Assembly: GCA_030390025.1 (NCBI GenBank)
Contig: CM059431.1
Span: 103,294,001-103,358,000, forward strand
Source: Squalus acanthias
Lineage: Eukaryota
DNA: 64,000 nucleotides
Direction of reading: 5' to 3'
Positions 3,270 through 61,257 of the stretch are shown piece by piece; positions within the stretch are counted from its first letter, which is position 1, and each line of letters begins with the position of its first letter. The position numbers and the translations under genes are program-made. The notes under the pieces were generated by a model. The model saw nothing but the letters and a program-made list of their open reading frames with translations. It did not search any database and was not told the DNA's origin.

Positions 3270-5257
3270 TAAGCCCACAGGATGTAATGGAACAATGGGT
3301 GATCTTTAAGGAGGCGATGTTTCAGGTACAGGCTAGGTACATTCCAACAAGAGGGAAAGCTAGGGGAACCAAAGCAAGGGCTCCTTGGATGACGAGGGAG
3401 ATAGAGAATATGATGAAACAAAAAAAGAGGGTGTATGATGCATGTCAGGTGAATTCTTCAAGTGAGAACCAGGCCAAATACAATAAGTTGAGAGGGGAAG
3501 TGAAGAGGAAAGTAAGACTGGCAAAGCGAGAATATGAGAGTAGAATGGCGGTTAACATAAAAGGGAACCCAAAAATCTTCTACCGGCATATAAATAGTAA
3601 GCGGGTAGTAAGAGGCGGGGTGGGGCCTGTTAGGGACAAAGAAGGTGATATATGCTTAGAGGCGCAGGGCAAAGCTAGAATACTTAATGAGTACTTTGTA
3701 TCGGTGTTTACGAAGGAAGAGGATGCTGACAAAATATCGGTAGAAGCAGAGATGGTAGAAGCAATGGAAGGGTTGAAAATTGATGGGCAGGATGTACTGG
3801 AAAGGCTGGATATGCTTAGAGTGGATAAGTCGCCTGGTCCAAATGGCTTGCATCCCAGGCTGCTAAGGAAAGTGGGGGTGGAGATAACGGAAGGGCTTGT
3901 CATAATCTTCCAATCTTCCGTAGATATGGGGGAAGTGTCAGAGGATTGGAAAGTGGCAAATGTGACACCCTTGTTAAAGAAAGGGTGTAAGGACAATTCT
4001 AGTAACTACAGTTTAACATCAGTGTTGGGTAAGGTTTTCGAAACAATAATCAGGGAAAAAATTAACGGGCACTTGGAGAGGTTTAAGTTAATTACGGATT
4101 TGTAAAAGGCAGATCGTGTTTGACTAATCTAATTGAATTTTTTGATGAAGTAACAGAGAAGGTTGATGAAGGGAATGCAGTGGATGTTGTTTATATGGAT
4201 TTTAAGAAAGCGTTTGACAAAATACCACATAAAAGGCTGGTTAACAAAATTGAGGCTCATGGAATAGGAGGGTCAGTGGCAGCTTGGATAAGAAATTGGC
4301 TTAAGGACAGAAAACAGCAAACTGTGGTAAATGGTTGCTTTTCAGAATGGAGGATGGTAGACAGTGGTGTTCCCCAAGGGTCAGTGCTGGGACCACTGCT
4401 TTTTTTGATATATATAAATGACTTCGATATTGGAGTAAAATTTCTAAATTTTGCCAATGATACCAAATTTGGGGGTGTGGCAAACAGTAAGGATGATACC
4501 AATTGACTGCAACAAGACTTAATGGCACAGTTCTAAAGAGTGTGCAGGGAGAGAGGGACTTGGCAGTTCTTGTGCATAGATCTTTGAAGGTGGCAGGACA
4601 TATTGAGAGAGTAGTTAGTAAAGCATATGGGTTCTTGGGCTTCATAAATAGAGGTATTGAGTACAAAAGCAGAGAAGTTATGCTGAACCTTTATAAAGCT
4701 CTGGTTAGGCCACAATTAGAATATTGCGTCCAGTTCTGGTCACCACACTTTAGGAAGGATGAGAAGGTCCTTGAGAGGGTGCAGAGGAGATTTACCAGAA
4801 TGGTTCCAGGGATGAGGGATTTTAGCTACAAGGTTAGGTTGGAGAAGCTGGTGTTGTTCTCCTTGGAGCAAAGGAGGTTGAGGGGAGATTTGATAGAGGT
4901 GTACAAGATTATGACGGGTTTGAATAAGGTAGACAGAGAAAAGCTGTTCCCATTAGCTGATGGTACAAGGACTAGGGGACACAGATTTAAGGTCTTGGGC
5001 AAGAGATACAGGGGGAATGTGAGGAAGAACTTTTTTACGCAGCGAGTGGTAATGACCTGGAACTTGCTGCCGACGAGGGTGGCGGAAGCGGAGATGATCA
5101 ATGATTTCAAAAGGAAATTGGATAGGCACTTGAGTGAAATAAACTTGCAGGGCTACGGGGACAGAGCGGGGGAATGGGACTGACTGGATTGCTCTACAGA
5201 GAGCCGGCATGGACTCGATGGGCCGAATGGCCTCCTTCCGTGCTGTAATGACTCTAT
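3270..5257 (+). mobile_element. 5'-truncated, frameshifted CR1 LINE (RT region, 3' UTR and tail)
   Basis: ORFs 3218, 4120 and 4503 carry DKSPGP, DWKVANVTP, GVPQGSVLGP and EYCVQFWSP. The 3' end reads GGCCGAATGGCCTCC. The CTATG tail resumes at 6105. Confidence 0.95.
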
Positions 5258-5538
5258 GGGCTGGATTTTGATACGGGGCGGGTTGGGGTCGTATTATCCA
5301 CTTTTCATGTTATCCACCCGACTGCAATTGGATGTGGGAGATTGATGCAATTTTCACCTAATTGGGCAATTGAGTTCCAGCATGTGGGAACCCATGACCT
5401 AATTAGTGTTTTCAGTCTGAAAGTCGCCTCTGATGATGTCATCATTGCTGCTGCATTGAATATCTTCAGAGACTGCCTGGCCTTTGCTGTGAGAGGACCT
5501 GGATGGAAGTCTGTTCCCAGATATTTTTACGAGAGGGA

Positions 5539-5576
<38 letters not shown>

Positions 5577-6104
5577 CAGAGAGAGACAGACAGACAGACA
5601 CAGACACAGACAGACAGACAGAGAGAGAGAGAGAGACAGACAGACAGGCAGGCAGACAGACAGACAGACAGAGAGACAGACTTTTGCTGTGAGAGGACCT
5701 GAAGGCAAAATGAGCAGCAGCAGCCCTACGTCTGCTCCCAGATATTTTCCTACTACTTCTGCATTGTAATAGTGGACCTGCAGCTGATAGTCAGCTTTCG
5801 AAATGTGGTCCCACCAGGTTTCACAATCGTGGTTCAGAACAGGCGTGCTTCACGTAGAACAAGGGTTAAAATCACAAAGGCCTTTCAAAATGGCATTATA
5901 GAGGCAATTTAGTGCTTGTTAAGGGCCTTAATAGCCTATCCCGCCTCTTAAAGGCAGGACGGAGTCGGGACCAGCAGACACGATTTAATCAAAATTGCGT
6001 GGAGGCGGGATGGAGGCGGACTTGTGCCCGCCCGCCAGTTTTCGCAATTTTAACCCCCCACACGCCTCCAAACCCGCCTCCACGGGTCAATGAAAATCCA
6101 GCCC
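5258..6104. mobile_element. Harbinger-type MITE, family A copy 1
   Basis: TIR GGGCTGGATTTT..AAAATCCAGCCC. Same sequence as 16028-16725 and 29149-29824. The TSD is imperfect (TAT/ATG). Confidence 0.9.
5530..5681. repeat. (GA)n/(GACA)n compound microsatellite inside the MITE
   Basis: Directly visible. Confidence 0.95.
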
Positions 6105-6622
6105 ATGTCTCTATGACTCTACAATCAGTGATCTCTTGGTATGGTTGTGCTAGTCATGGAATGAATAGCGGGTTTGAGGGCTGAAGAGGTTTTCTTGTAT
6201 TTGGTTGCTGAGATTGAGTTGGGTTCGGAAACACGGAGATCCTGCGTATCAGTTGGTTGTGGTCACTGCCTGTGCCTGGTTATGGACAGGTTGTTGTTAC
6301 TAGCTTATTTATGATATTGTGTTGGTCTGAACTGTCCTCCTGGCTATTGGTTTGGTTTGTGGGTGGCTTGTGAAGACTGAGACTTGAGGTTTTGGGACCA
6401 GGACTACTTGGCATTTCTGCATTTCCAGGCGGAAATTGAACATCACTCATTCAGATTGGGAAATAGATACTTCAGGCACATACTTGTTGTAGGGAGAGTT
6501 CTACTTCGATATGGTGGAGAATGAACCTACTGGCAGGTCCTTGAGCCATTAGAGTGCCTTTGCCAGAATTGGAGGCAAACTACGGTTTGAGTTGTGATGA
6601 AAAGCCATTGACCTGAAATGTT

Positions 6623-8402
6623 GGCCGGAATTTTCTGGGGTGGTAGCGGGCGCGATTGGCGGTGGGTCGGGTGGGAAAGTAGTTATTTTTGACAGCAGTG
6701 TCAGGAACCCGCTGTCATCCCGCCCCCACGTGCCTTTCCCCCAGGCACGTATGTCATCTCAGAGCTGACCCGACCAGCAGTGGCGGGCGACCCAATTGAA
6801 ATGATTATCAGGTAGTTAACAGGCACTTAAGAGACTTGTTTCATTTACTTTTTAAATTTCCCTGCATGGCCACGGGATTCATGCAGCTCGGGAACCACGT
6901 CTGTCAACCTGAGGCAGCAGTTCAGTGGCCATTGCTCCAGCTGATTACTTGACAACATGAAATGTACAGTAAAAGCTCCCACCTGACAGATGATCACTTT
7001 CCTCAGGCAGAAGCTGTTGCTCAGTCCATTTTCAGCACAGATTCTGCAGGCTGCAAGTGCTTCCAGCAAAGTTTCCATCCAGTCTCACCTCATTGGAAGA
7101 ACTCTCTCACCATTGACAGATGCTTCACCTGCCGTCTATTCCATCAGCATGGGTACCGTTTATAATGTCTCACCTTGGGTCCTCAGAATCGGACCACGAT
7201 GAGCCCCAACACCAGTAGCACCAACAACAATACTAACCTTCTCTGCAATCACCTGATGCTGCACAGGACATGAGGGCATCAGCACCTGACCACATTGCTG
7301 CCCGGGAGGCCAGGGATGGCCTCACCATGGCCAGATTTACTTCATTTGACGCTGTACACCCTAGCTGCCACATGATGCGCCAGGTTGGCACCACCCCACA
7401 CCAACACCATAAAGCGTCCCTACAATGACAAAGCCATTCCTTTCACACTCATCACCATTGCGGGGGTACCGTTATATCTCACCATTGGGGGGGGGGGGTA
7501 ACGTTATGTTTCACTATTCACTGCAACTCACTAAGCCACTGCCAAAGGTGCACACAAATCTGTCCAAGGAAAGTGTTGAAAATAAAGATTTTTATGTTTG
7601 AAAGCACATTAACAGAAATTTTACACAAACATTGGATAAACACCCAAGTGGCCTCCTAGTGTGTTGTTAGTTGGTATGATTGGACAAGGATGAGGGTGAG
7701 TGTGAGGGGTGTCTAGTGAGATGGGGATGTGATAATGTAGATAGAAAGGGATGGGTGGAGGTGCAAGGTATGTGTGAGTAAGGATGTGCAGGAGTAGGGT
7801 AGGGAAGGCAGAGTGATGGGGATGTGATGAGTGGCACAGCAGGATGAGGCTGAGTGCGGCTTTGCAGTAATGTTTCGTGATCTACTGAGATCATTGAAAC
7901 GTTTGCGCCACTGCACCCAGGTCCTCCTGAACACATCCCTGCTGGTGACCTCCTCTGCAATCTGCAACCAGGCTGTGTTGGTCTCCTGGGGAGGTCTCTT
8001 CCACCCATCGGAAGGGAAGAGGACCTCCTTGCGTACTGTGACTCCATCCATAAGCATATGGAGGGAGTCATCGGAGAGCCTGGGTGCAGCCCTCCGCCTC
8101 TGTGCAGTCATTGTCAATGTTTGCAGCACCTCAATGCTGTAGTGCACTGACAGCACTATGTTAGATTAAACTTCAAATCTAATGTGACCATGGTCCCTTT
8201 AAAGATCCTGTCTGAAAATGCGTCATGAATGATGTCACCAGACCCGCTCCATCTCATTGGGCTGGGTAACGCGCTAGGCGGGTTTAATAGGCCCCATTTA
8301 GGTAAGTTCATTTTCTTACAGCGGGATGGAGCCAGCAGCAGGGTCGCGACCCCTCATGGCCGCCGCCCGCTCGGACCCGCCCAGGTAAAGAAAATTCCGG
8401 CC
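6623..8402 (-). mobile_element. Non-autonomous Harbinger element retaining a Myb/SANT exon
   Basis: Perfect TIR GGCCGGAATTTT..AAAATTCCGGCC, with TSD GTT on both sides. Confidence 0.92.
7713..8111 (-). pseudogene. Harbinger Myb/SANT-like DNA-binding domain (exon 1 with read-through)
   Basis: MTAQRRRAAPRLSDDSLHMLMDGV..KEVLFPSDG..AWLQIAEEV..RTWVQWRKRFNDL. Confidence 0.85.
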
Positions 8403-30074: not shown

Positions 30075-33000
30075 GGAGCTGATTTCAATAACGGGAGATT
30101 AAGTGCTCGAGTTTAATTCCCGAGGTGGGTTGGAGTCGGGTTGCGTGGTGGGCGGGTTCGGGAGCCGCTTCCGGCGGGAACAGCTGCAGAGTTGCGATTT
30201 TTATTAAAGTACCTTGTTAATTTCATGGAGGCGCGCTGACCGGTCCAATGAGTGGGATCGGGTCAGCTGGCCGCCTCTAATGACGTCATAATAGCAGCTG
30301 CTTTTAAAGCTGCCATCCAGCCTGAGTCTTTCCATTGTGGTTTCCTGCACTTCTTTTCACAGCTATGACTTCTTCCAGAGGCAAGGGAACTCCTTGATTT
30401 AATGATGAGTCCCTCCAAGCTCTTGTGGATGCTGTCAGAGGGCGCAGGGAGATTCTCTTCCCTCCTGATGGCCGGAGGAAGCCTCCTCAGCAGACCAAGG
30501 CAGCCTGGCTGCACATTGCTCAGGAGGTGAGCGCAAGGTGCATTTATGCACGCTCATGGATCCAGTGCCGCAAAAGGTTTAATGATCTTGTGATAACATC
30601 AAAAGTGAGTATCCCATCTCACTTGCCTTCACTCTGCTTCCCTTCCCTCCTCATCACCAGCACTCTGCGTTGTAAGCCTCCTCCTTCACATCCCACCTTA
30701 CTCTTACTTCCCTTGCACCCTCTCCTATCCATCTCTGTCTCTGCACTGAGTCACTTCAGCATCCTGCCTATGCACCCCTTAGACTCGCTCTCACTCTCAT
30801 GCAGTGACAACTAACAACGCACAGGGAGCTAGCTTCCTCTTGGCACCTTACCCCATCTTCGTCTCACTCAAAGCTTCTATGGTAGGGATTAATCACACTC
30901 ACGCCATCACTGTGGCTGAAACACCGCTTGTGTCCCTCCTAGCAGGAAAAGATAGCCCACAATAAGAGGGAGAGAGCAATGACTGGAGGAGGAACAGCTT
31001 CCCTAGCAACATTGACCAGTGCTGAGGAGGCAGCAAACAAGATTGTTGGAGATGGCGAGGACCTGGAAGTGGGCGATGGAGAGACGGGCACACTAGAGGA
31101 AGCTGGTGACATAATAGAGTTTCATCCCTCTCAGAAAGCAATGCAATATGATGTTCATAGAGAATCGCTTTGTATCATCTGCTCAAAAGGCAGTGCCTGC
31201 TATATCAATATCAGATGTCTAATTCAAGCCTTTACTCTCCCACAGGACCATCGAGTGCACCCCCTCCCCACGATCCAGGACGAAGAACCGGACAAATCCT
31301 CAGAGGAACCTGAAGCCTCTGAGGGACCAGCGGCACCAGGACTCAGCGCACCCAGCACCAGCGCAGCAACGCTCACCTCGGTGGGGCCATCGCGAGTTAG
31401 AGTAGTGTTGCCACCTAGTCTATCACAGCGCATAAGTGAGCATCAGCAGATGGTGGAGACAGCGACAGCAGTGGAGAGTCCTCCTCGGAGGTCGCAGGAC
31501 TCTCCTAGCTCTGCTGAGCTGCATGCAGACACTGTGCCTCTGGGGCTATCCAGAAAAAGAGCGTCTCGGGAAATACAGGAACAAGTGCAGGTGTCTCTGG
31601 AAGGGTTTGCCTCCAGGGTTAGTGCGAGTGTGGAGAGAATGGAGGAGTCCGTCTGTAACATTAGCGCTGCCGTGGTGGAGGCAATGGCGCATGAACGCAC
31701 CACCATGGATAGGATGGCAACCTCCGTGGAAAGGATGGCTATGGCCATGGAGGAAATAAGTCGCCAGAGTCAGGAAAATATGGTGACTGTTCAGAATAGA
31801 CTGACATCTCTGGAGGAGCGATGGGCAGCTATTGAGCAGAGAGACCAGAGCTTCATGGACGTCCTTTTGAGGAGGACTGCCAGTGCAGATACGGATCCTC
31901 ATGGTCGGCCTGATGTGCTGCAAGGTGCTCTCTGGCCACTTGTCAACACTGAAGTGCGGCTGACCCACGAGAGGGATGTTGTTGGCAGGACAGAAGGAAG
32001 TGTGGGCTCCTCTCCAAGCGCTCACACGACCATGCCACTACGGAGCCCTCGGTCAGAGACCCACTTTGCAGAGACAACTGAGATGACCGTTTCAGCCCCT
32101 GCACAGCCGCAGGAAGAGCAGACTGTTGAAGAGCCCTCCCAGGCTCCCAAACCCAGAGGACGCCCGCCAAAGGCGTCTAAGCAGGCGCAGCATCCTAGTC
32201 AGCAAGGTGCCTCCACATCTGCTGAAGCCACAGGGGAGCACCACGTAGCAGCACGCGTAAGAGAAAAAGTAAGTCACAAGGGGACTCACTTGGGTGATGT
32301 TTCTTTTTTTTCCGACTGCTGTTGGTATATTTTGTCATGTGTTAAAGAGAAATTATCGCAAACAATTGATTGTGTGGCCTATGTGTTCTGGGAAATGGCA
32401 AAAGCGCATTGAAGGCTCAGGGCGACTTACATTTGTAATGCTGATGGTAGCAATGATAGGAAATAAGAAGGTCTAGCAGAGATGAAGTATGACATTGGAC
32501 AAGTGTTGCCTGCAATTACAGAGCCATATGGTGGCCACCTATGGTCGAAGAGTAAGCTTATGGTAGTGTGACATGGCAGTGTGCATACCCTGGTTGACAG
32601 GCAGCAGTGAACTGGAGGGATGCTGTATAGGTCACAACAGGGCATGCAAGGCTCCCCTCGTCCTCCTCCTCCTCCTCTTCCCAGGAAGATCTGCGCTGAG
32701 TCACACGGCTGCTGCTCCCCCGAATATGAGGACCAGGATGAGAGGGTATAAATGTTTCCCATCCCCTTGCTATAGATTTCAGTTGAGGTAACAATCCTGC
32801 AAACGCAGTTGAAGTGGCCTGAAATAATTCCATTCATGACACACTGCAGATGGGTATCAGCTTGAACAGTCAGAAGGTCAGTAGATGTGAAAAATGTTAT
32901 CCCATACCTACAACAGCAAAGTTGTTGCATTTGAATGTCAGCCATGTTTCAGGGCGCTTTTAAAGTGCTCCACCAATGCATACAAATCATGTCCTCCAGC

Positions 33001-33274: not shown

Positions 33275-33999
33275 TAAGGTTCGGTATACACATCAAACCT
33301 CTCCTAAGTTAGAACTGGCTTCAACTTAACCATAGATGGTGCTAGAATACCAAAAAAAATATTTTTTCTGCTGTTAGAGCCTCATAAAGTTGTTAACACT
33401 GTCCCGACTGTGTAAGCCCAGCTTTATGTTTATATTTTGCCAATCAGTTTGCATTTATATAGCGCCTTTCACCACCTCAGGACATCCCAAAGCGCTTTAC
33501 AGCCAGTAAAATACTTTTGGAGTGGAGTCATTGTTGCAATGTGGGAAATGCGGCAGCCAATTTGCGCACAGCAAGCTCCCACAAACTGCAATGTGATAAT
33601 GACCAATGTGTTTTTTTTAGTGATGTTGGTTGAGGGATAAATATTGGCCCCAGGGCACTGGGGATAACTCCCCTGCTCTTCTTCCAAATAATGCCGAGGA
33701 ATCTTTTACGTCCAGCTGAGAGGGCAGACGGGGCCTCGGTTTAACGTCTCATCCAAAAGATAGGTAGAATGAATCGATGCTTTTTGTGATATACAGTGGG
33801 ATCGATTTCAATCTCGAGGGAGTTTTGGGCGGGTCAGGGATGGGCTGAGTGTGAATTCACTGGCCTGAAATTCAGGTCTGGGCTATTTTAACTCCCGGGC
33901 CTCACTTAAACTTGACTGGTGGATTTCACATCCAATCCCATTGGGAACAGGAAGCAAGCCCACTTTCCCGGTGGAATATCCAGCTATTATCACCATGGT

Positions 34000-36900
34000 A
34001 ATTTTTGATAAAGCAGTTCGGGAGCATTTAAACTAGTATGGCAGGGGGCTAGAAACCTATGTAGTGAAATAGAGGAAAGTGAAAGGCAGACAGAAATAAA
34101 TGGTAAAAGGGTGAGGAACAAAAAACAAAGGGCCAAACTAATTCATAAAAAATGTGAGCATAAAAAAAGCCTGAGGGTTTTATACCTTAATGCGAGAAGC
34201 ATCAGGAACAAGGTAGATGAATTAGCTGTGGAAATAGAGGTTAATAATTATGATCTAATTGGGATTATGGAAACATGGTTGCAGGGTGAGCAGGGCTGGG
34301 AGCTTAACATACAGGGGTATTCAGTATTTAGGAAGGATCGACAAAAAAGAAAGGGAGGAGGGGTAGCATTGCTGGTAAAAGAGGGGATAAATGCAATTGA
34401 AAGGAAGGATATTAACTCAGTTAATACAGAATCTATATGGGTGGAGCTAAGAAATAGCGAGGGGCGAAAAACATTAATAGGAGTGGTATATAGGCCTCCA
34501 AATAGTAAAATAGAGGTTGGGGAGGGCATCACGAGGGAAATTAGAGAAGCATGCAATAAGAGCACAGCTGTCATCATAGGTGACTTTAACTTACATATAG
34601 ATTGGAATAGCCTAATCAGTAAAAATAATGAGGAGGAGGAATTCCTTGAGTGTTTAAGGGATGGTTATCTGGATCAATATGTCGAGGAACCAACTCGGGA
34701 ACAGGCTATATTGGACTGGGTACTGTGCAATGAGAAGGGACTAATTAGTAATCTTGTTGTACGGGGACCCTTGGGTCAGAGCGATCATAACATGATCGAT
34801 TTCTCACTCGAAATGGAGAGCGAAGAAATTGACTCAGAGACTAAGGTCCTGAATTTAAACAAGGGGAATTATGATGCCATTAGACGGGAACTGAGTAGGT
34901 CTGATTGGACAACGTTCCTGGGAGGACTGGAGGTAGATAAACAATGGCAAGCATTTAAAGATAGAATGACAAAATTGCAAAAATTGTTTATACCAATCTG
35001 GCATAAAAGGAAATCTAAAAAGGTGACTCAACCGTGGATAACAGGGGAAATTAGAGACAGCATAAAATCCAAAGATAGGGCGTATAAAATAGCCAAAAAA
35101 AGCGCCAGAGCGGAAGATTGGGAACAGTTTAAGATAGAGCAAAGGAGGACAAAGGGCTTAATCAAGAGGGGCAAAATAGCTTACGAAAGCAAGCTGGCGG
35201 AAAATATAAAAACTAACTCCAAAAGCTTTTATAAGTATATCAAGAGGAAAAGACTGGTGAAAACCAAAGTTGGTCCATTGCAGTCAGATACGGGGGAATA
35301 TATAACGGGAAATAAGGAAATGGCAGACCAACTAAATGCATACTTTGGGTCAGTCTTTACGAAGGAAGACACAAAAAACCTCCCTGGGATATCGGGAAAG
35401 ATAGGGACATTGGCAAAGGAGGAACTGACGCAAATCAATATCTCTAAGGATATGGTGTTAAGGAAGCTAAAGGGATTGAAGGCGGACAAATCCCCAGGGC
35501 CTGATAACATGCATCCTAGGGTACTGAAGGAGGTGGCCCTAGAGATAGCGGATGCACTAAGTATGATTTTTCAGAATTCATTAGACTCGGGAACAGTGCC
35601 CATGGATTGGAGGGTAGCTAACGTTACCCCACTATTCAAAAAGGGGGGTAGGGAAAAAGCAGGTAATTACAGACCTGTAAGCCTTACATCAGTTGTGGGC
35701 AAAATGCTGGAGTCCATCATTAAGGATGAAATAGCGGAGCACTTAGCAAATGGGGACAGGATAGGACAGAGTCAACATGGATTTACAAAGGGTAAATCGT
35801 GCTTGACTAATCTATTGGAATTTTTTGAGGGAGTAACTGGTAAAATAGATGGGGGAGAGCCAGTAGATGTGGTGTACCTGGACTTCCAAAAGGCCTTCGA
35901 TAAGGTCCCACATAAAAGATTAGCATGGAAAATTGAATCTCATGGGATAAAAGGGAAAGTATTGACGTGGATAGAGAACTGGCTGTCAGATAGAAAACAG
36001 AGAGTTGGAATAAACGGCTCATTTTCTGAATGGCAGGCAGTAACAAGTGGGGTACCACAGGGATCTGTCCTGGGTCCCCAGCTGTTCACAATTTACATTA
36101 ATGACCTGGATCAGGGAGTCGGATGCAGCATTTCCAAATTTGCAGACGACACTAAACTAGGAGGGGGGGTGGGCTCAGAGGAGGAGACCAGGAAGCTCCA
36201 GAGCGATTTGGACAGACTGGGTGATTGGGCGGATAAATGGCAGATGCACTATAATGTGGACAAGTGCGAAGTTATCCACCTTGGGTGCAGGAACGGGAGG
36301 GCAAATTATTATTTAAATGGCAATAAATTGGGAGAGGGGGAAGTACAGAGAGACCTGGGTGTTCTTGTACACCAGTCACTGAAGGCGAGCATGCAGGTGC
36401 AACAGGCGGTCAAGAAGGCAAACGGTATGCTGGCCTTCATAGCAAAAGGGTTGGAATACAGGAACAGGGATACCTTGCTGCAGCTGTACAGGGCACTGGT
36501 GAGACCACACCTCGAGTACTGTGTACAGTTTTGGTCGCCTCATCTGAGGAAAGATGTTCTTGCCATGGAGGGGGTGCAGCGGCGATTCACCAGGCTGATA
36601 CCAGGAATGGCGGGATTGACCTATGAGGAGAGACTATGTAGTTTAGGGATGTACACACTGGAGTTTAGAAGATTGAGAGGGGACCTCATAGAAGTGTATA
36701 AAATTCTGACAGGTCTAGACAGACTAGATGCAGAAGGAATGTTTCCCTTGGCGGGTGAGAACAGAACTAGAGGACATAATTTAAGGATAAGGGCTAAACC
36801 ATTTAGGACAGAAATGAGGGGGAATTTCTTCACTCAGAGGGTGGTGAACCTATGGAACTCATTGCCACAGAGGGCAGTGTATGCCAGCTCATTAAATATA

Positions 36901-37078
36901 TTTAAGAGGGAATTAGATATTTTTCCACAGGCAAAAGGGGTTAAGGGTTACGGAGAGAAGGCGGGGACGGGATACTGAATTGGAGGATCAGCCATGATCT
37001 CATTAAATGGCGGAGCAGGCTCGAAGGGCCGGATGGCCTACTCCTGCTCCTATCTTCTATGTATCTATGTATCTATGT
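34000..37078 (+). mobile_element. CR1 LINE truncated at the end of ORF1, with complete ORF2, 3' UTR and (CTATGTAT) tail
   Basis: ORF1 end AVREHLN* at 34034-34036, followed by an uninterrupted ORF2. Confidence 0.96.
34027..36978 (+). CDS. CR1 ORF2: APE endonuclease and reverse transcriptase, uninterrupted
   Basis: Motifs YLNARS, GDFN, SDHN, QHGF, PQGSVLGP, FADD. The frame is open from 34027 and has no ATG before the first endonuclease motif. Confidence 0.93.
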   Translation, partial: FKLVWQGARNLCSEIEESERQTEINGKRVRNKKQRAKLIHKKCEHKKSLRVLYLNARSIRNKVDELAVEIEVNNYDLIGIMETWLQGEQGWELNIQGYSVFRKDRQKRKGGGVALLVKEGINAIERKDINSVNTESIWVELRNSEGRKTLIGVVYRPPNSKIEVGEGITREIREACNKSTAVIIGDFNLHIDWNSLISKNNEEEEFLECLRDGYLDQYVEEPTREQAILDWVLCNEKGLISNLVVRGPLGQSDHNMIDFSLEMESEEIDSETKVLNLNKGNYDAIRRELSRSDWTTFLGGLEVDKQWQAFKDRMTKLQKLFIPIWHKRKSKKVTQPWITGEIRDSIKSKDRAYKIAKKSARAEDWEQFKIEQRRTKGLIKRGKIAYESKLAENIKTNSKSFYKYIKRKRLVKTKVGPLQSDTGEYITGNKEMADQLNAYFGSVFTKEDTKNLPGISGKIGTLAKEELTQINISKDMVLRKLKGLKADKSPGPDNMHPRVLKEVALEIADALSMIFQNSLDSGTVPMDWRVANVTPLFKKGGREKAGNYRPVSLTSVVGKMLESIIKDEIAEHLANGDRIGQSQHGFTKGKSCLTNLLEFFEGVTGKIDGGEPVDVVYLDFQKAFDKVPHKRLAWKIESHGIKGKVLTWIENWLSDRKQRVGINGSFSEWQAVTSGVPQGSVLGPQLFTIYINDLDQGVGCSISKFADDTKLGGGVGSEEETRKLQSDLDRLGDWADKWQMHYNVDKCEVIHLGCRNGRANYYLNGNKLGEGEVQRDLGVLVHQSLKASMQVQQAVKKANGMLAFIAKGLEYRNRDTLLQLYRALVRPHLEYCVQFWSPHLRKDVLAMEGVQRRFTRLIPGMAGLTYEERLCSLGMYTLEFRRLRGDLIEVYKILTGLDRLDAEGMFPLAGENRTRGHNLRIRAKPFRTEMRGNFFTQRVVNLWNSLPQRAVYASSLNIFKRELDIFPQAKGVKGYGEKAGTGY

Positions 37079-37112
37079 ACGTGTTGAACCAGAAACCACT
37101 GCAGGTAACATC

Positions 37113-37285
37113 ATAATAATAATAATAAGAAGGAGAATAAGAAGGAGGAAGAGGAGGAGGAAGAGGAGGAAGAAGCGGAGGAGGAAGAGGAGGAAGAAAA
37201 GGAGGAGGAGGGAGAAGAGGAGAAGGAGGAGGCGGTGGAAGAGGAGGAGGAGGAAGAGGAGCAGGAAGAGGAGCAGCAAGAGGAG

Positions 37286-37326
<41 letters not shown>

Positions 37327-37474
37327 GGAGGAAGAAGAGGAAGAAGAAGAGGAAGAGAAGGAAGAAAATGAGGAGCAGGAAGAAGAGGAGGAGGTGGAGG
37401 AGGAAGAGAAGGAGGAGGAAGGGGAGGAGGAGGAAGAGGAAGAGGAGGAGGAGGAAGAGGAGCAGGAAGAGGAG

Positions 37475-37509
<35 letters not shown>

Positions 37510-37513
37510 GGAA
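37113..37513. repeat. (AAT)n followed by ~385 bp (GAG/GAA)n polypurine tract, the expanded tail of the adjacent L2
   Basis: Directly visible. It abuts AACTTGTATTTATATAGCGCC, the L2 terminus on the minus strand. Confidence 0.95.
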
Positions 37514-38050
37514 GAACTTGTATTTATATAGCGCCTTTAACATAGTAAAACATTGCAAGGTGCTTCACAGGAGCGTTATCAAACAAAATATGACACTGAG
37601 CCAAACAAGGAGATACTAGGACAGGTGACCAAAAGCTTGGTCAAAGAGGTAGGTTTTAAGGAGCGTCTTAAAGGAGGAGAGAGAGGTAGTGAGGCAGAGA
37701 GGTTTAGGGAGGGAATTCCAGAGCTTGTGACCTTGGCAGCTGAAGGCACGGCCACCAATGGTGGAGCAATTTTAAAACAGGGAATGCGCAAGAGGCCAGA
37801 ATTGGAGGAGTGCAGCGATCTCAGAGGATATGTAGGACCGGACGATGTTACAGAGATAGGGAGGGGGGCGAGGCCATGGAGGGATTTGAAAACAAGGATG
37901 CGAATTTAAAAAAGAAAGTAGATGTTCCCGGACCGGGAGCCAATGTAGGTCAGCGAATCACAGGGGTGATGTGTGAACGGGACTTGGTGAGAGTTTGCCG
38001 TGGGACAGCGGAGTTTTGGTTGAGCTCAGGTTTACGGAGGGTGCAACATT
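37514..38050 (-). mobile_element. L2-type 3' end
   Basis: Colinear with 20490-20915 and 24264-24680. Confidence 0.88.
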
Positions 38051-57173: not shown

Positions 57174-60088
57174 CTAATCCCATATTCCAGCATTTGGTCC
57201 GTAGCCTTGTATGCTATGGCATTTCAAGTGCTCATCCAAATGCTTCTTGAATGTTGTGAGGGTTCCTGCCTCCACAACCCTTTCAGGCAGTGAGTTCCAG
57301 ACTCCAACCACCCTCTGGGTGAAAAAGTTCTTTCTCAAATCCCTTCTAAACCTCCCGCCCTTTACCTTGAATCGATGCCCCCTTGTTATAGACCCCTCTA
57401 CTAAGGAAAAAAGCTCCTTAATATCCATCCTATCTATGCCCCTCATAATTTTGTACACCTCAATCATGTCCCCCCTCAGCCTCCTCTGCTCCAAGGAAAA
57501 CAAACCCAATCTGCCCAGTCTCTCTTCATAGCTGAAGCACTCCAGCCCGGGTAACATTCTGGTGAATCTCCTCTGCACCCTCTCCAAAGCTATCACATCC
57601 TTCCTGTAGTGTGGCGACCAGAACTGCACACAGTATTCCAGATGTGGCCTAACCAGTGTTTTATACAGCTCCATCATAACCTCCTTGCTCTTATATTCTA
57701 TGCCTCGGCTAATGAATGCAAGTATCCCATATGCCTTTTTTACCACCTTATCCACCTGTTCCGCCGCCTTCAGGGATCTGTGTACTTGCACACCAAGATC
57801 CCTCTGACCCTCCGTCTTGCCTTGGGTCTTACCATTCATTGTGTATTCCCTTGCCTTGTTAGTCCCTCCAAAGTGCATCACCTTGCACTTTTCCGGATTA
57901 AATTCCATTTGCCACTGTTCCGCCCATCTGACCAACCCATCTATATCGTCCTGCAGACTGAGGCTACCCTCCTCGCTATTTACCACCCTACCAATTTTTG
58001 AAACATCCGCGAACTTACTGATCATACCTTTTACATTCATATCCAAGTCGTTAATGTAGACCACAAACAGCAAGGGACCCAGCACCGATCCCTGTGGTAC
58101 CCCACTGGCCACAGGCTTCCAGTCACAAAAACAACCTTCGACCATCACCCTCTGCCTTCTGCCACTGAGCCAGTTTTGTATCCAATGTGCCAAGGCACCC
58201 TGGATTCCATGGGCTCTTACCTTCTTGACCAGTCTCCTGTGCGGGACTTTATCGAAGGCCTTACTGAAATCCATGTATACCACATCCACTGCGTTACCCT
58301 CATCCACACACCTAGTCACCCCCTCAAAAAATTCAATCAAATTAGTCAGACATGATCTTCCCTTGACAAAGCCATGTTGGCTAATCCTGATTAATCCTTG
58401 CCTCTCCAAGTGGAGACTAATTTTGTCCCTCAGAATTTTTTCCAATAATTTTCCTACCACTGATGTTAGGCTCACTGGCCTGTAGTTCCCCGATTTTTCC
58501 CTACTCCCTTTCTTGAATAATGGTACTACATTAGCGGTTCTCCAGTCCTCTGGCACATCCCCTGTGGCCAGAAAGGTTCTGAATATATGTGTTAGAGCCC
58601 CCGCAATCTCCTCCTTTGCCTCACACAGCAGCCTGGGATACATTTCGTCCGGACCTGGGGATTTATCCATTTTTAGACCTGCTAAAACCGCCAATACCTC
58701 CTCCCTCTCGATGTTAAAATGTTCGAGTATATCACAGTCCCCCTGCCCTAATTTTATGTCTCCATAGTGAAAACAGATGCAAAAAATTCATTTAGAACCC
58801 CACCTACATCTTCCGGCTCCACACACAGATTGCCACTTTTGTCCCTAATGGGCCCTATTTTTTCCCTAGTTATCCTCTTACCCTTAATATACTTATAAAA
58901 CATCTTAGGATTTTCCTTTATTTTGCTCGCCAGTGTTATTTCATGGCCCCTCCTTGATCTCCTAATTTCTTTTTTAAGTATCTCCCTGCACTTTTTGTAC
59001 TCCTCTAGGGCTTCCTCCGTCTTTAGCATTTTGTATCTGCCAAAAGCCCTCCTTTTTTTCCTGATCCATTCTCGTATATCCCCCGACATCCAAGGTTCCC
59101 TGGGGTTTTTGGAACCACCCTTGACCTTTACGGGAACATGCTGCCATTGTATGATCTCAATCTCCCTTCTGAAAGAATCCCATTGCTCCGATGCGGATTT
59201 TCCTACAAGCAGCTGATCCCAGTCCATTTTGGCCAGATCCTGCCTTATCCTATTAAAATCGGCCTTCCCCCAATTTAGAACCTTTATTTCCGGCCCATCC
59301 CTGTCCTTTTCCATGACCACCTTAAATCTCACCGTATTATGGTCACTGTCACCAAAGTGCCCACCTACTAGCACTTCTTCCACTTGGCCGGCCACATTCC
59401 CTAGAATTAGGTCCAGTACCGCCCCCTCTCTTGTAAGACTTTCTACATGCTGGCTCAAAAAGCTCTCCTGGATGCACTTTAAGAATTTTGAACCCTCTAA
59501 TCCTTTCACACTCTGACTATCCCAGTTAATATTGGGGAAGTTGAAATCCCCCATTATTATTACCCTATTATTTGCACATTTCTCTGAGATTTGCCTACAT
59601 ATCTGTTCCTCTATCTCCCCCTGACTGTTTGGGGGCCTACAGTATGCTCCCAGCAAAGTGCTTGCCCCCTTTTTGTTTTTAAGCTCCACCCATATAGCCT
59701 CATTGGAGGAACCTGCTAATATATCATCCTTCCTTATGGCAGTAATTGATTCTTTAATTAATATTGCGACCCCCCCTCCTCTTATACCTCCCCCTCTGTC
59801 TCGCCTGAAGATTCTGTACCCCGGAATATTGAGCTGCCAGTCTTGCCCCTCCCTCAACCATGTCTCCATGATAGCAACAATATCATACTCCCATGTGTTT
59901 ATCAACACCTTCAGTTCATCCACCTTATTCGCTAGACTCCTTGCATTAAAATAGATGCCTTCCAGCCTTGCTCTTACATGTTTGCCCTGTCTTCCAAGCT
60001 GACTTGTTTTTTTCTCTATATTTGACTGTACATCACCCCCTATTGTAGCTCCACTCTGTATCCCATCCCCCTGCCAAGTTAGTTTAAA
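57174..60088 (-). pseudogene. CR1 ORF2 (endonuclease and RT), frame-disrupted near 58750, FADD changed to FADV
   Basis: YFNARS, GDFN, SDHN, QHGF, PQGSVLGP. Confidence 0.93.
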
Positions 60089-61029
60089 CCCCCCCCAACA
60101 GTGCTAGCAAACCTCCCCGCAAGGATATTTGTCCCGCTCTGGTTCAGATGCAAACCGTCCGACTTGTACAAGTCCCACCTTCCCCAGAAGCAGGCTCAGT
60201 GATCCAGGAAACTAAAACCCTCCCTCCTGCACCAACTCTTTAGCCACGCATTCATCTGTTCTATCCTCCTATTCCTATACTCACTAGCACGTGGCACTGG
60301 GAGTAATCCAGAGATTACAACCTTTGAGGTCCTGCTCTTTAATCTGCTGCCTAGCTCCCTAAATTCTTGATGCAGGACCTCATCCCCCTTCCTACCTATG
60401 TCGTTGGTCCCAATGTGAACCACGACCTCTGCCTGCTCACCCTCCCCCTTAAGAATGCCCTGTAGCCGCTCAGTGACATCCATGACCCTGGCCCCAGGGA
60501 GGCAACCAACCATCCTGGAGTCACGTTTACTGCCACAGAAACGCCTATCTGTTCCCCTTACGATAGAATACCCTACCACTATTGCTCTCCCACTCTTTTT
60601 CCTCCCTTTCTGAGCAGCAGAAGCAACCCTGGTGCCAGGAAGTTGGCTGCTGCCGCTCTCCCCTGGTGAGTCATCCCCCTCAACAGTATCCAAATCGGTA
60701 TACCTGTTTGAAAGGGGGTTGACCGCAGGGGTCCCCTGTACTTCCTGCCTGCCTCTGCTGCTCCGCCTGATGGTCACCCATTTCCCTTCTGCCTGTGCAG
60801 CCCTACCCTGCGGCGTGACCAACTCGCTAAACGTGTTATCCACGACCCTCTCAGCATCGCGTATGCTCCAAAACTCATCCACCCGCAGCTCTAGCGCCGC
60901 AATGCGGTCTACAAGTAGCTGCAGCTGGATGCATTTCTCGCACACATGGTCCCCAGGGACACTGGCAGCGTCCCTAAATTCCCACATGGAGCAAGAGGAG
61001 CATAACACGGGGCTGATCTCACCTGCCAT
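60079..61029 (-). pseudogene. CR1 ORF1: zinc-finger/leucine-zipper plus SGNH esterase-like domain, premature TGA at 60198-60196
   Basis: CSSC..CEKC, IVVG(Y)SIVR and HIGTND. After the stop the frame continues ..DGLHLNQSG..GGGLN*. Confidence 0.92.
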
Positions 61030-61257
61030 GACCTAATCCTTTAATTAAATAAAAAATGTATTCAATACCCCAGTTACAGATATACTCTAGGGTGCTTTAT
61101 TTACCAACTGTCCCCACTACACCACAGAGACCCTAGAAATTTAACACCACAGAATTTAAGCTTAAAAAGAGAGAAATACTCACCAACCAATCACTTACCT
61201 GCTTTTTGGTGACGTCACACTTCGATTATTTTTCCCTCCGAGTTCGGAGACTGGTAC

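Follow-up and report, generated by a model that had tools for sequence, protein, structure and literature searches.

A conserved slippery heptamer abutting the ORF1 stop codon suggests programmed -1 ribosomal frameshifting into ORF2 in CR1-group LINEs of Squalus acanthias

Programmed -1 ribosomal frameshifting is standard for retroviruses and long terminal repeat (LTR) elements, and the heptamer UUUAAAC is the slippery site between open reading frames (ORFs) 1a and 1b of coronaviruses. At the sites of luteoviruses and dianthoviruses, such as barley yellow dwarf virus (BYDV) and red clover necrotic mosaic virus (RCNMV), the 0-frame stop codon stands right after the slippery heptamer, and adjacent or long-distance RNA structures are also needed. 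How ORF2 is translated from the bicistronic RNA of a long interspersed nuclear element (LINE) is a long-standing question, for which a conserved slip site provides a testable hypothesis. Passages on non-LTR ORF2 translation in PMC3894237, PMC3708506 and PMC5009743 name coupling, reinitiation and routes resembling an internal ribosome entry site (IRES), and call the mechanism unclear; a passage of PMC5911963 states that TRE5-A and TRE3-A of Dictyostelium, non-LTR elements of the apurinic/apyrimidinic endonuclease (APE) type, need -1 frameshifting. According to PMC13343379, most vertebrate species have CR1-group elements as their dominant retrotransposon. Here we analyse a CR1-group LINE in a stretch of 64,000 nucleotides from Squalus acanthias (assembly GCA_030390025.1, contig CM059431.1, positions 103,294,001 to 103,358,000 of the forward strand; hereafter the window), and suggest, with a probability of roughly 0.7, that programmed -1 frameshifting at its ORF1/ORF2 junction yields an ORF1-ORF2 fusion protein.

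The original prediction held that a UUUAAAC site links CR1 ORF1 to an ORF2 without an AUG of its own. Its reading of the junction is borne out: bases 34025-34036 of the forward strand are CAT TTA AAC TAG, and T_TTA_AAC has the X_XXY_YYZ register relative to the frame that ends at this TAG. The -1 frame is open over the whole of ORF2 (Table 1), which matches the Pfam families RVT_1 (1.3e-30), Exo_endo_phos_2 (2e-10) and Exo_endo_phos (2.1e-9), and there is no ATG in it 5' of the endonuclease motif YLNARS (34183-34200); the first in-frame ATG is codon 86, created by a C>T change private to the window copy (found in 0 of 28 other copies). The ORF1 that had been placed at the site is reduced in this copy, which is truncated at 33995/6, to its 13 terminal codons. 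Because TTTAAAC is frequent in the window (13 occurrences on the forward and 6 on the reverse strand, with about 5 expected per strand), a single occurrence carries little weight; conservation does.

With diverged database ORF1 proteins as queries we took from the genome 34 junction pieces of 421 bases, chosen for varied open-frame length, which represent five lineages, A to E (Table 1). All five lineages read NNT TTA AAC, followed without a gap by TAA or TAG. The codon overlapping the start of the heptamer varies (CAT, GAT, GGT or GCT), and its third base is T in every lineage. The heptamer is intact in 31 of the 34 pieces, the exceptions being L080 (TTCAAAC), L102 (CTTAAAC) and L103 (TTTAAAA), and a TAA or TAG abuts it in 32, all except L076 and L111. 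When 13 junctions from the five lineages are aligned over 251 columns, 52 columns are invariant and the longest invariant run is TTTAAACTA; invariant runs of at least 9 appeared in just 9 of 100,000 column shuffles. Besides TTTAAACTA, the junction has a single invariant run of at least 4, a GGGG a few bases downstream, and between lineages the flanks are 52-82% identical upstream and 32-72% identical downstream. An older, decayed lineage-C element on the reverse strand of the window has a junction of this kind as well, with the heptamer at 60088-60082, a TAA at 60081-60079 and ORF2 in the -1 frame (..GGFKLTWQG..).

The phase of ORF2 relative to ORF1 is -1 in all five lineages. Frame counts cover 31 pieces of lineages A-D, the reference included: in 23 of them the -1 frame is open through the end of the piece, 25 have the endonuclease motif in it, and the nearest upstream -1 stop stands 5 codons before the heptamer in 29; this stop is absent in lineage E. 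The heptamer is separated from the motif by 53 codons in lineage A, 67 in B, 46 in C and 68-71 in D, always a whole number of codons, and a codon-position test in which part of the endonuclease was included found the linker between heptamer and endonuclease to be poorly conserved. An in-frame ORF2 AUG is not conserved, lineages A and C having none before the endonuclease domain. Near the ORF1 stop there is no AUG in the ORF2 frame in any of the five lineages, and hence nothing of the SART1-type stop-start arrangement. The ATG at 34038-40 belongs to the third frame, runs into a stop after 4 codons and is missing in lineages C, D and E. In lineages A-D the conserved upstream -1 stop limits any shift into ORF2 to an overlap window of 8 codons.

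Taken together, the fixed T, the same UUA and AAC codons, the constant -1 phase, the open overlap and the lack of a conserved AUG fit selection for tandem slippage; judged from sequence, this pattern is one that such selection predicts, whereas it would not be expected if only the ORF1 protein were under selection. The constancy that the original prediction expected, in heptamer, register, adjacent stop and phase, is thus found across diverged lineages, and the AUGs that do occur upstream are lineage-specific. The site is where ORF1 meets ORF2 in a CR1-group LINE of very young age. In full-length elements ORF1, a 315-aa SGNH esterase, terminates in ..CAU UUA AAC UAG, and ORF2, encoding endonuclease and reverse transcriptase, lies in the -1 frame with no usable AUG and an overlap with ORF1 of only 8 codons. 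In the mechanism that we propose, a small share of the ribosomes decoding UUA-AAC would slip back by one base on U_UUA_AAC, their tRNAs re-pairing with UUU-AAA, and would read on through CUA GUA UGG... into an ORF1p-ORF2p fusion. The slip and the fusion, which we infer, would give a product that runs through ORF1p to ..His-Leu-Asn and continues with Leu-Val-Trp-Gln-Gly.. and ORF2p. Unslipped ribosomes would stop at the adjacent codon and release ORF1p alone, and the ratio of ORF1p to fusion would be set in the manner of Gag to Gag-Pol. We speculate that the abutting stop may give the pause that pseudoknots give in viruses.

Table 1. Features of the window and junctions of the five CR1 lineages (positions are those of the window)
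Feature	Position	Strand	Remarks
5'-truncated young CR1 LINE copy, lineage A	33995..37078	+	Similarity to other copies; 3' end by alignment to L031
ORF1 remnant	33995..34036	+	Last 13 codons and TAG; L031 reads ..VVIFDKAVREHLN* over the same bases
TAA closing the -1 (ORF2) frame	34009..34011	+	5 codons 5' of the heptamer
ORF2, -1 frame, stop to stop	34012..36978	+	988 codons
Candidate -1 slippery heptamer T_TTA_AAC	34027-34033	+	Leu codon in P site, Asn codon in A site
ORF1 stop codon TAG	34034..34036	+	Heptamer immediately 5'
G-rich tract TGGCAGGGGG	34039..34048	+	A few bases 3' of the heptamer
ORF2 AP-endonuclease domain	about 34189-34788	+	Pfam
ORF2 reverse transcriptase domain	about 35647-36279	+	Pfam
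3' untranslated region (UTR)	36979..37078	+	Tandem ATCTATGT-type octamers at end; alignment to L031
Second, older, decayed CR1, lineage C	57174..61032	-	ORF1 63% identical (protein); ORF1 and ORF2 broken
Lineage A junction			GAG CAT TTA AAC TAG, next bases TATGGCAGGGGG
Lineage B junction			GAG GAT TTA AAC TAA, next bases TATGGCAGGGG
Lineage C junction			GGG GGT TTA AAC TAA, next bases CTTGGCAGGGGG
Lineage D junction			AGG GCT TTA AAC TAA, next bases ATAGTGGGGGGG
Lineage E junction			GGG GGT TTA AAC TAA, next bases TTTGTCAGGGGG

The ORF1 that the window copy lacks is seen in the full-length element L031, where ORF1 (4039-4986, 315 aa) ends in ..VVIFDKAVREHLN* and ORF2 (4962-7928, 988 codons) lies in the -1 frame. 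L031 ORF1 matches the esterase domain of the zebrafish ZfL2-1 ORF1p (PDB 4c1b) with an E of 4.2e-29, and relatives of this ORF1 carry PF13472; the family therefore has the SGNH/GDSL esterase ORF1 looked for in CR1, and the window copy is without it. Over the 3081 bases shared with L031 the window element differs at 16, and 5 ORF2 residues differ. A 641-base junction query brought up 625 candidates, and each of the 40 matches that were scored has an identity of about 100% to it. Compared with the copy L003 over 1712 bases, 28 of 35 copies differ at 14 or fewer, 27 of these at 6-14, the ungapped difference count being disturbed by indels in the remaining 7. On this evidence the family is very young, abundant and recently active, so that the junction layout belongs to a working element. 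A family so young must, as far as its sequences tell, express ORF2; the first Met of L031 ORF2 is codon 261, beyond most of the endonuclease domain. The 5' starts of 29 copies fall at L031:4012 in 18 cases and at 4018 in one, with ten scattered over 4165-4562, so that the 5' UTR of the full element is 27 bases long, counted up to the ORF1 ATG. Such a UTR offers scant space for an internal promoter.

ORF1 relatives in other species, gathered by a word-indexed search, by searching 1.84 billion representatives with a profile and from two later look-ups, finally numbered 277 proteins. C-termini were counted on 258 of them, of which 79 truncated or chimeric ones were excluded and 179 reach the end of the ORF1 profile. 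More than half of the latter (94) end in x-Leu-Asn, a further 10 in QGN or SGN, 2 in SKN and 7 in some other ...N, and the remaining 66, mostly of cyprinid type, otherwise. Since nothing follows Leu-Asn in these 94 proteins, the stop directly adjoins the Asn codon in each. The residue preceding Leu-Asn is G, A, Y, T, S, C, D, F, N, H or V in 93 of the 94, and E in one; it can thus be encoded by NNU in 93 of 94. Ends of this kind are what a heptamer with an abutting stop would demand, and CR1 elements in many vertebrates appear to share the layout. Named sources of this class are sharks, rays, Alligator, Macrochelys, Chrysemys, Zootoca, Salvator, Hirundo and the eel Synaphobranchus; teleost ORF1s are without the Leu-Asn tail. 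The alignment of ORF1 to the ZfL2-1 esterase ends at residue 303 of 315 and so does not include the tail. At the protein level, QGN or SGN and SKN ends would fit G_GGA_AAC and A_AAA_AAC, respectively. A search of this genome with P0162 as query yielded no QGN-type ORF1 lineage at E 1e-40 or better, scans of metagenome and viral contigs for junction DNA yielded no relative, and a scan of genome contigs returned bacterial SGNH hydrolases only.

Two ray gene models, P0034 and P0273, read ..G and then FKL.. across the junction, which would fix the DNA there as T_TTA_AAY if the ORF1 frame is assumed to read Leu-Asn-stop, by analogy with the ends of related ORF1s. Both are likely annotation chimeras caused by the junction layout, with no bearing as evidence of frameshifting. 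P0273 carries the name of a host enzyme (hydroxyacid oxidase 2 isoform X1). The bird model P0272 passes over the junction and is uninformative on it.

Several observations weigh against frameshifting. An in-frame AUG is present in lineage B at codon 19 past the heptamer, and in some of the D copies at codons 16-18, and in lineage E an in-frame Met lies upstream, within the longer -1 window. In the window copy only the 13-codon remnant of ORF1 is available for a fusion. The junction pieces were hand-picked from top-scoring lists, mostly with unbroken ORF1, which biases their counts toward young copies. The layout is not universal, since 66 of the 179 ORF1 relatives end otherwise, and protein ends are phylogenetically non-independent, with the codons of other species inferred from protein. 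Folding, by which a downstream stimulator had been sought, predicts none: single folds of 60-130 nt downstream in lineages A, B and C give z-scores of -0.5 to +0.64 and no stimulatory structure, RNAalifold on 8 sequences gives 0 pairs, and folds of 330 nt have nothing in common between lineages. It is important to note that these results are predictions, which pseudoknots or long-range pairs could escape. The region is purine-rich, and its conserved 3' features are the adjacent stop and the G-tract only; a G-quadruplex, considered by eye, is not claimed, the G-runs failing to yield four short-loop tracts in every lineage. The Gag-Pol-like fusion of the original prediction is accordingly supported in part: three of the four sequence tests came out for it, and it is weakened by the lack of a predicted stimulator and of ORF1 in the window copy.

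The missing stimulator would be no difficulty for a termination-coupled restart, in which ribosomes would resume at a non-AUG codon near the ORF1 UAG or UAA and make ORF2p as a free protein. The stop always adjoins the conserved block, folding predicts no 3' stimulator such as frameshift sites have, and PMC3894237, PMC3708506 and PMC5009743 describe reinitiation or coupling for SART1 and propose unconventional initiation for L1. We nonetheless consider a restart unlikely: neither an AUG nor a common near-cognate is available in the ORF2 frame close to the stop, the codons after the heptamer being CUA GUA, CUA AUA, CUA ACU, CUA AAU and CUA AUU in the five lineages. A restart would moreover leave unexplained the fixed T before the heptamer in all five, the NNU-codable residue in 93 of 94 Leu-Asn ends, and the constancy of the UUA and AAC codons despite flanks that are 32-82% identical. 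If the heptamer were instead kept for the Leu-Asn end of ORF1p, or as an RNA signal, ORF2 could be initiated independently and internally, by leaky scanning, an IRES or lineage-specific AUGs. The AUGs of lineage B and of some D copies, 19 and 16-18 codons past the heptamer, would serve this route, and the poorly conserved linker between heptamer and endonuclease agrees with it. It is hard to reconcile with lineages A and C, which lack an in-frame AUG 5' of the endonuclease domain, and with the first Met of L031 at codon 261; nor does it sit easily with a Leu-Asn tail that lies outside the ORF1 part aligned to ZfL2-1 and that teleost ORF1s do without, or with a -1 frame that is open up to the heptamer in all lineages despite the variable length of the linker. 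Internal initiation therefore seems to us highly unlikely.

A change of frame in the nucleic acid itself, by polymerase slippage, RNA editing or a splice joining the ORF1 AUG to ORF2, is an explanation to which we give hardly any credence. What speaks for it is the run of G residues directly before the heptamer in lineage C, where genome-wide 106 copies have G8, 29 have G9 and 4 have G7 (e.g. L116-L138). G9 places ORF1 and ORF2 in one frame, and the open frames of three G9 copies are 904, 669 and 546 aa long. A long run 5' of the stop is lacking in lineages A, B and D, and in lineage E, with a G7 run, an extra G is found in just 2 of the first 100 listed among 1,332 matches. RNA-seq reads under the same species label mapped to L031:3500-5500 (3,209 and 6,271 reads, with a depth of about 89 and 148 in the junction bin) show, at a threshold of 5% of reads, no joints and no indel at the lineage-A junction. 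The sole indel listed, at L031 4671 in 10 of 198 reads, lies about 300 bases upstream of the junction. Splicing, editing or polymerase slippage in at least 5% of reads is therefore disfavoured, in keeping with the expectation that no splice supplies ORF2. These reads fall on both strands and about half of them continue into unlike sequence, and expression of intact elements is not established by them.

The extra-G copies were also considered as a fused sub-family. Among 20 G9 and 20 G8 pieces only the extra G separates the two sets; because there is no other separating column, G9 is not a clade, the extra G arose repeatedly, and the sub-family was rejected. The G9 copies may stem from a biased slippage on the homopolymer; alternatively, RNAs in which a fusion is already encoded may be copied preferentially.

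The window copy itself has lost ORF1 by 5' truncation, leaving its junction site as a relic beside an otherwise intact ORF2. A genome search with window 33760-34260 gave six near-identical matches, its own locus included, all of which start at query base 236/237 (window 33995/6); the other 34 matches belong to a different, unrelated repeat (33780-33985). Flanking sequences are mutually unrelated among the window copy, L002, L004 and L005/L006, and in L003 the sequence continues upstream into an esterase-like frame. In the window the open stretch of the 0 frame amounts to just 55 codons (33869-34036), 42 of which belong to the unrelated flanking repeat, and it has no Pfam match. The first codon of the ORF1 remnant is ATG in the window copy, and the A of this ATG is absent from full-length copies. 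The element ends in ..TCTATGTATCTATGTATCTATGT at 37078, as does L031, with short tandem octamer repeats that we take to be a hallmark of CR1.

Four independent truncated copies with different flanks (the window copy, L002, L004 and L005/L006) share their start base, which precedes the ORF1 stop by 39-41 nt. In three of them the first codon of the ORF1 frame is an ATG, which in the window copy lies within CACCATGG; this gives a 13-codon mini-ORF ending at the slippery site. A sub-family of such truncated copies, each with a mini-ORF1, was considered and rejected, there being only 3 exact copies in the genome and no common substitution beyond the first base. The genome search favours rare words and skips very common ones, and the common truncation point may be partly an artefact of this.

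Directly upstream of the element, two other repeats occupy window 33440-33994. About 33440-33760 is presumably a short interspersed nuclear element resembling one from cartilaginous fishes, and for the second repeat, at about 33780-33985, there are 34 other matching loci, with identities of 69-87%. Shortly 3' of the element, at 37100-37530, lies a long purine-rich simple repeat of GAA/GAG type in which all six frames are open. An open frame of 489 codons, stop to stop, at 30943-32412 on the forward strand is rich in Ser, Glu and Ala and has no Pfam match. At least 12 further CR1 ORF2 fragments of several lineages, mostly 3' parts, are spread over both strands between 1354 and 62563.

If frameshifting is true, ORF2p would be made as a fusion with the esterase protein, in an amount set by the frameshift efficiency as for Gag-Pol. 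For annotation, the start of CR1 ORF2 should not be placed at the first AUG, and gene predictors have already given chimeric models across the junction, such as P0034 and P0273. A broader proposal, which we offer tentatively and would sooner doubt than assert, is that ORF2p might be made only as a fusion in every CR1-group LINE of vertebrates whose ORF1 encodes an esterase, in hosts ranging from sharks to birds. The slip would then be independent of RNA structure, X_XXA_AAC heptamers (U_UUA_AAC, G_GGA_AAC, A_AAA_AAC) would be interchangeable, the stop would act as the pause, and cis-preference would rest on the fusion, through which the reverse transcriptase would be held on the ORF1p particle. 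Parallels for a stop acting as a pause exist in plant viruses and in the E/P-site slippage model.

The literature that we searched yielded no report of CR1 frameshifting, and older CR1 papers outside its coverage could already describe the junction. Look-ups of terms in PMC5009743, PMC3894237, PMC3708506, PMC2881922, PMC3905857, PMC13343379, PMC4255032, PMC2817409, PMC1947958 and PMC11835228 found none; the literature so covered includes a recoding review of 2016, work of 2013 on translation of non-LTR elements, a non-LTR review of 2010 and the paper on the ZfL2-1 esterase. In a 2026 CR1-group survey the terms frameshift, overlap, slippery and start codon occur 0 times.

Of the described systems, SART1 of Bombyx and human L1 resemble CR1 in having a bicistronic LINE RNA whose ORF2 depends on events at the ORF1 stop, as set out in PMC3894237 and PMC3708506. 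The CR1 junction differs from both in that no AUG stands near the stop, the -1 overlap falls at a slippery heptamer, and a fusion is predicted instead of free ORF2p. TRE5-A and TRE3-A differ from CR1 in clade, in host and in ORF1. With the BYDV and RCNMV sites the CR1 junction shares the abutting stop, but no RNA structure is predicted for it. Compared with the sites of retroviruses and coronaviruses, it belongs to a non-LTR LINE, its ORF1 encodes an esterase and not Gag, the stop abuts the heptamer, and no pseudoknot or hairpin is predicted. Like retroviral and LTR-element Gag-Pol and the coronaviruses, however, it combines a canonical X_XXY_YYZ heptamer and an abundant upstream structural or accessory ORF with a downstream polymerase ORF that lies in the -1 frame without a start of its own.

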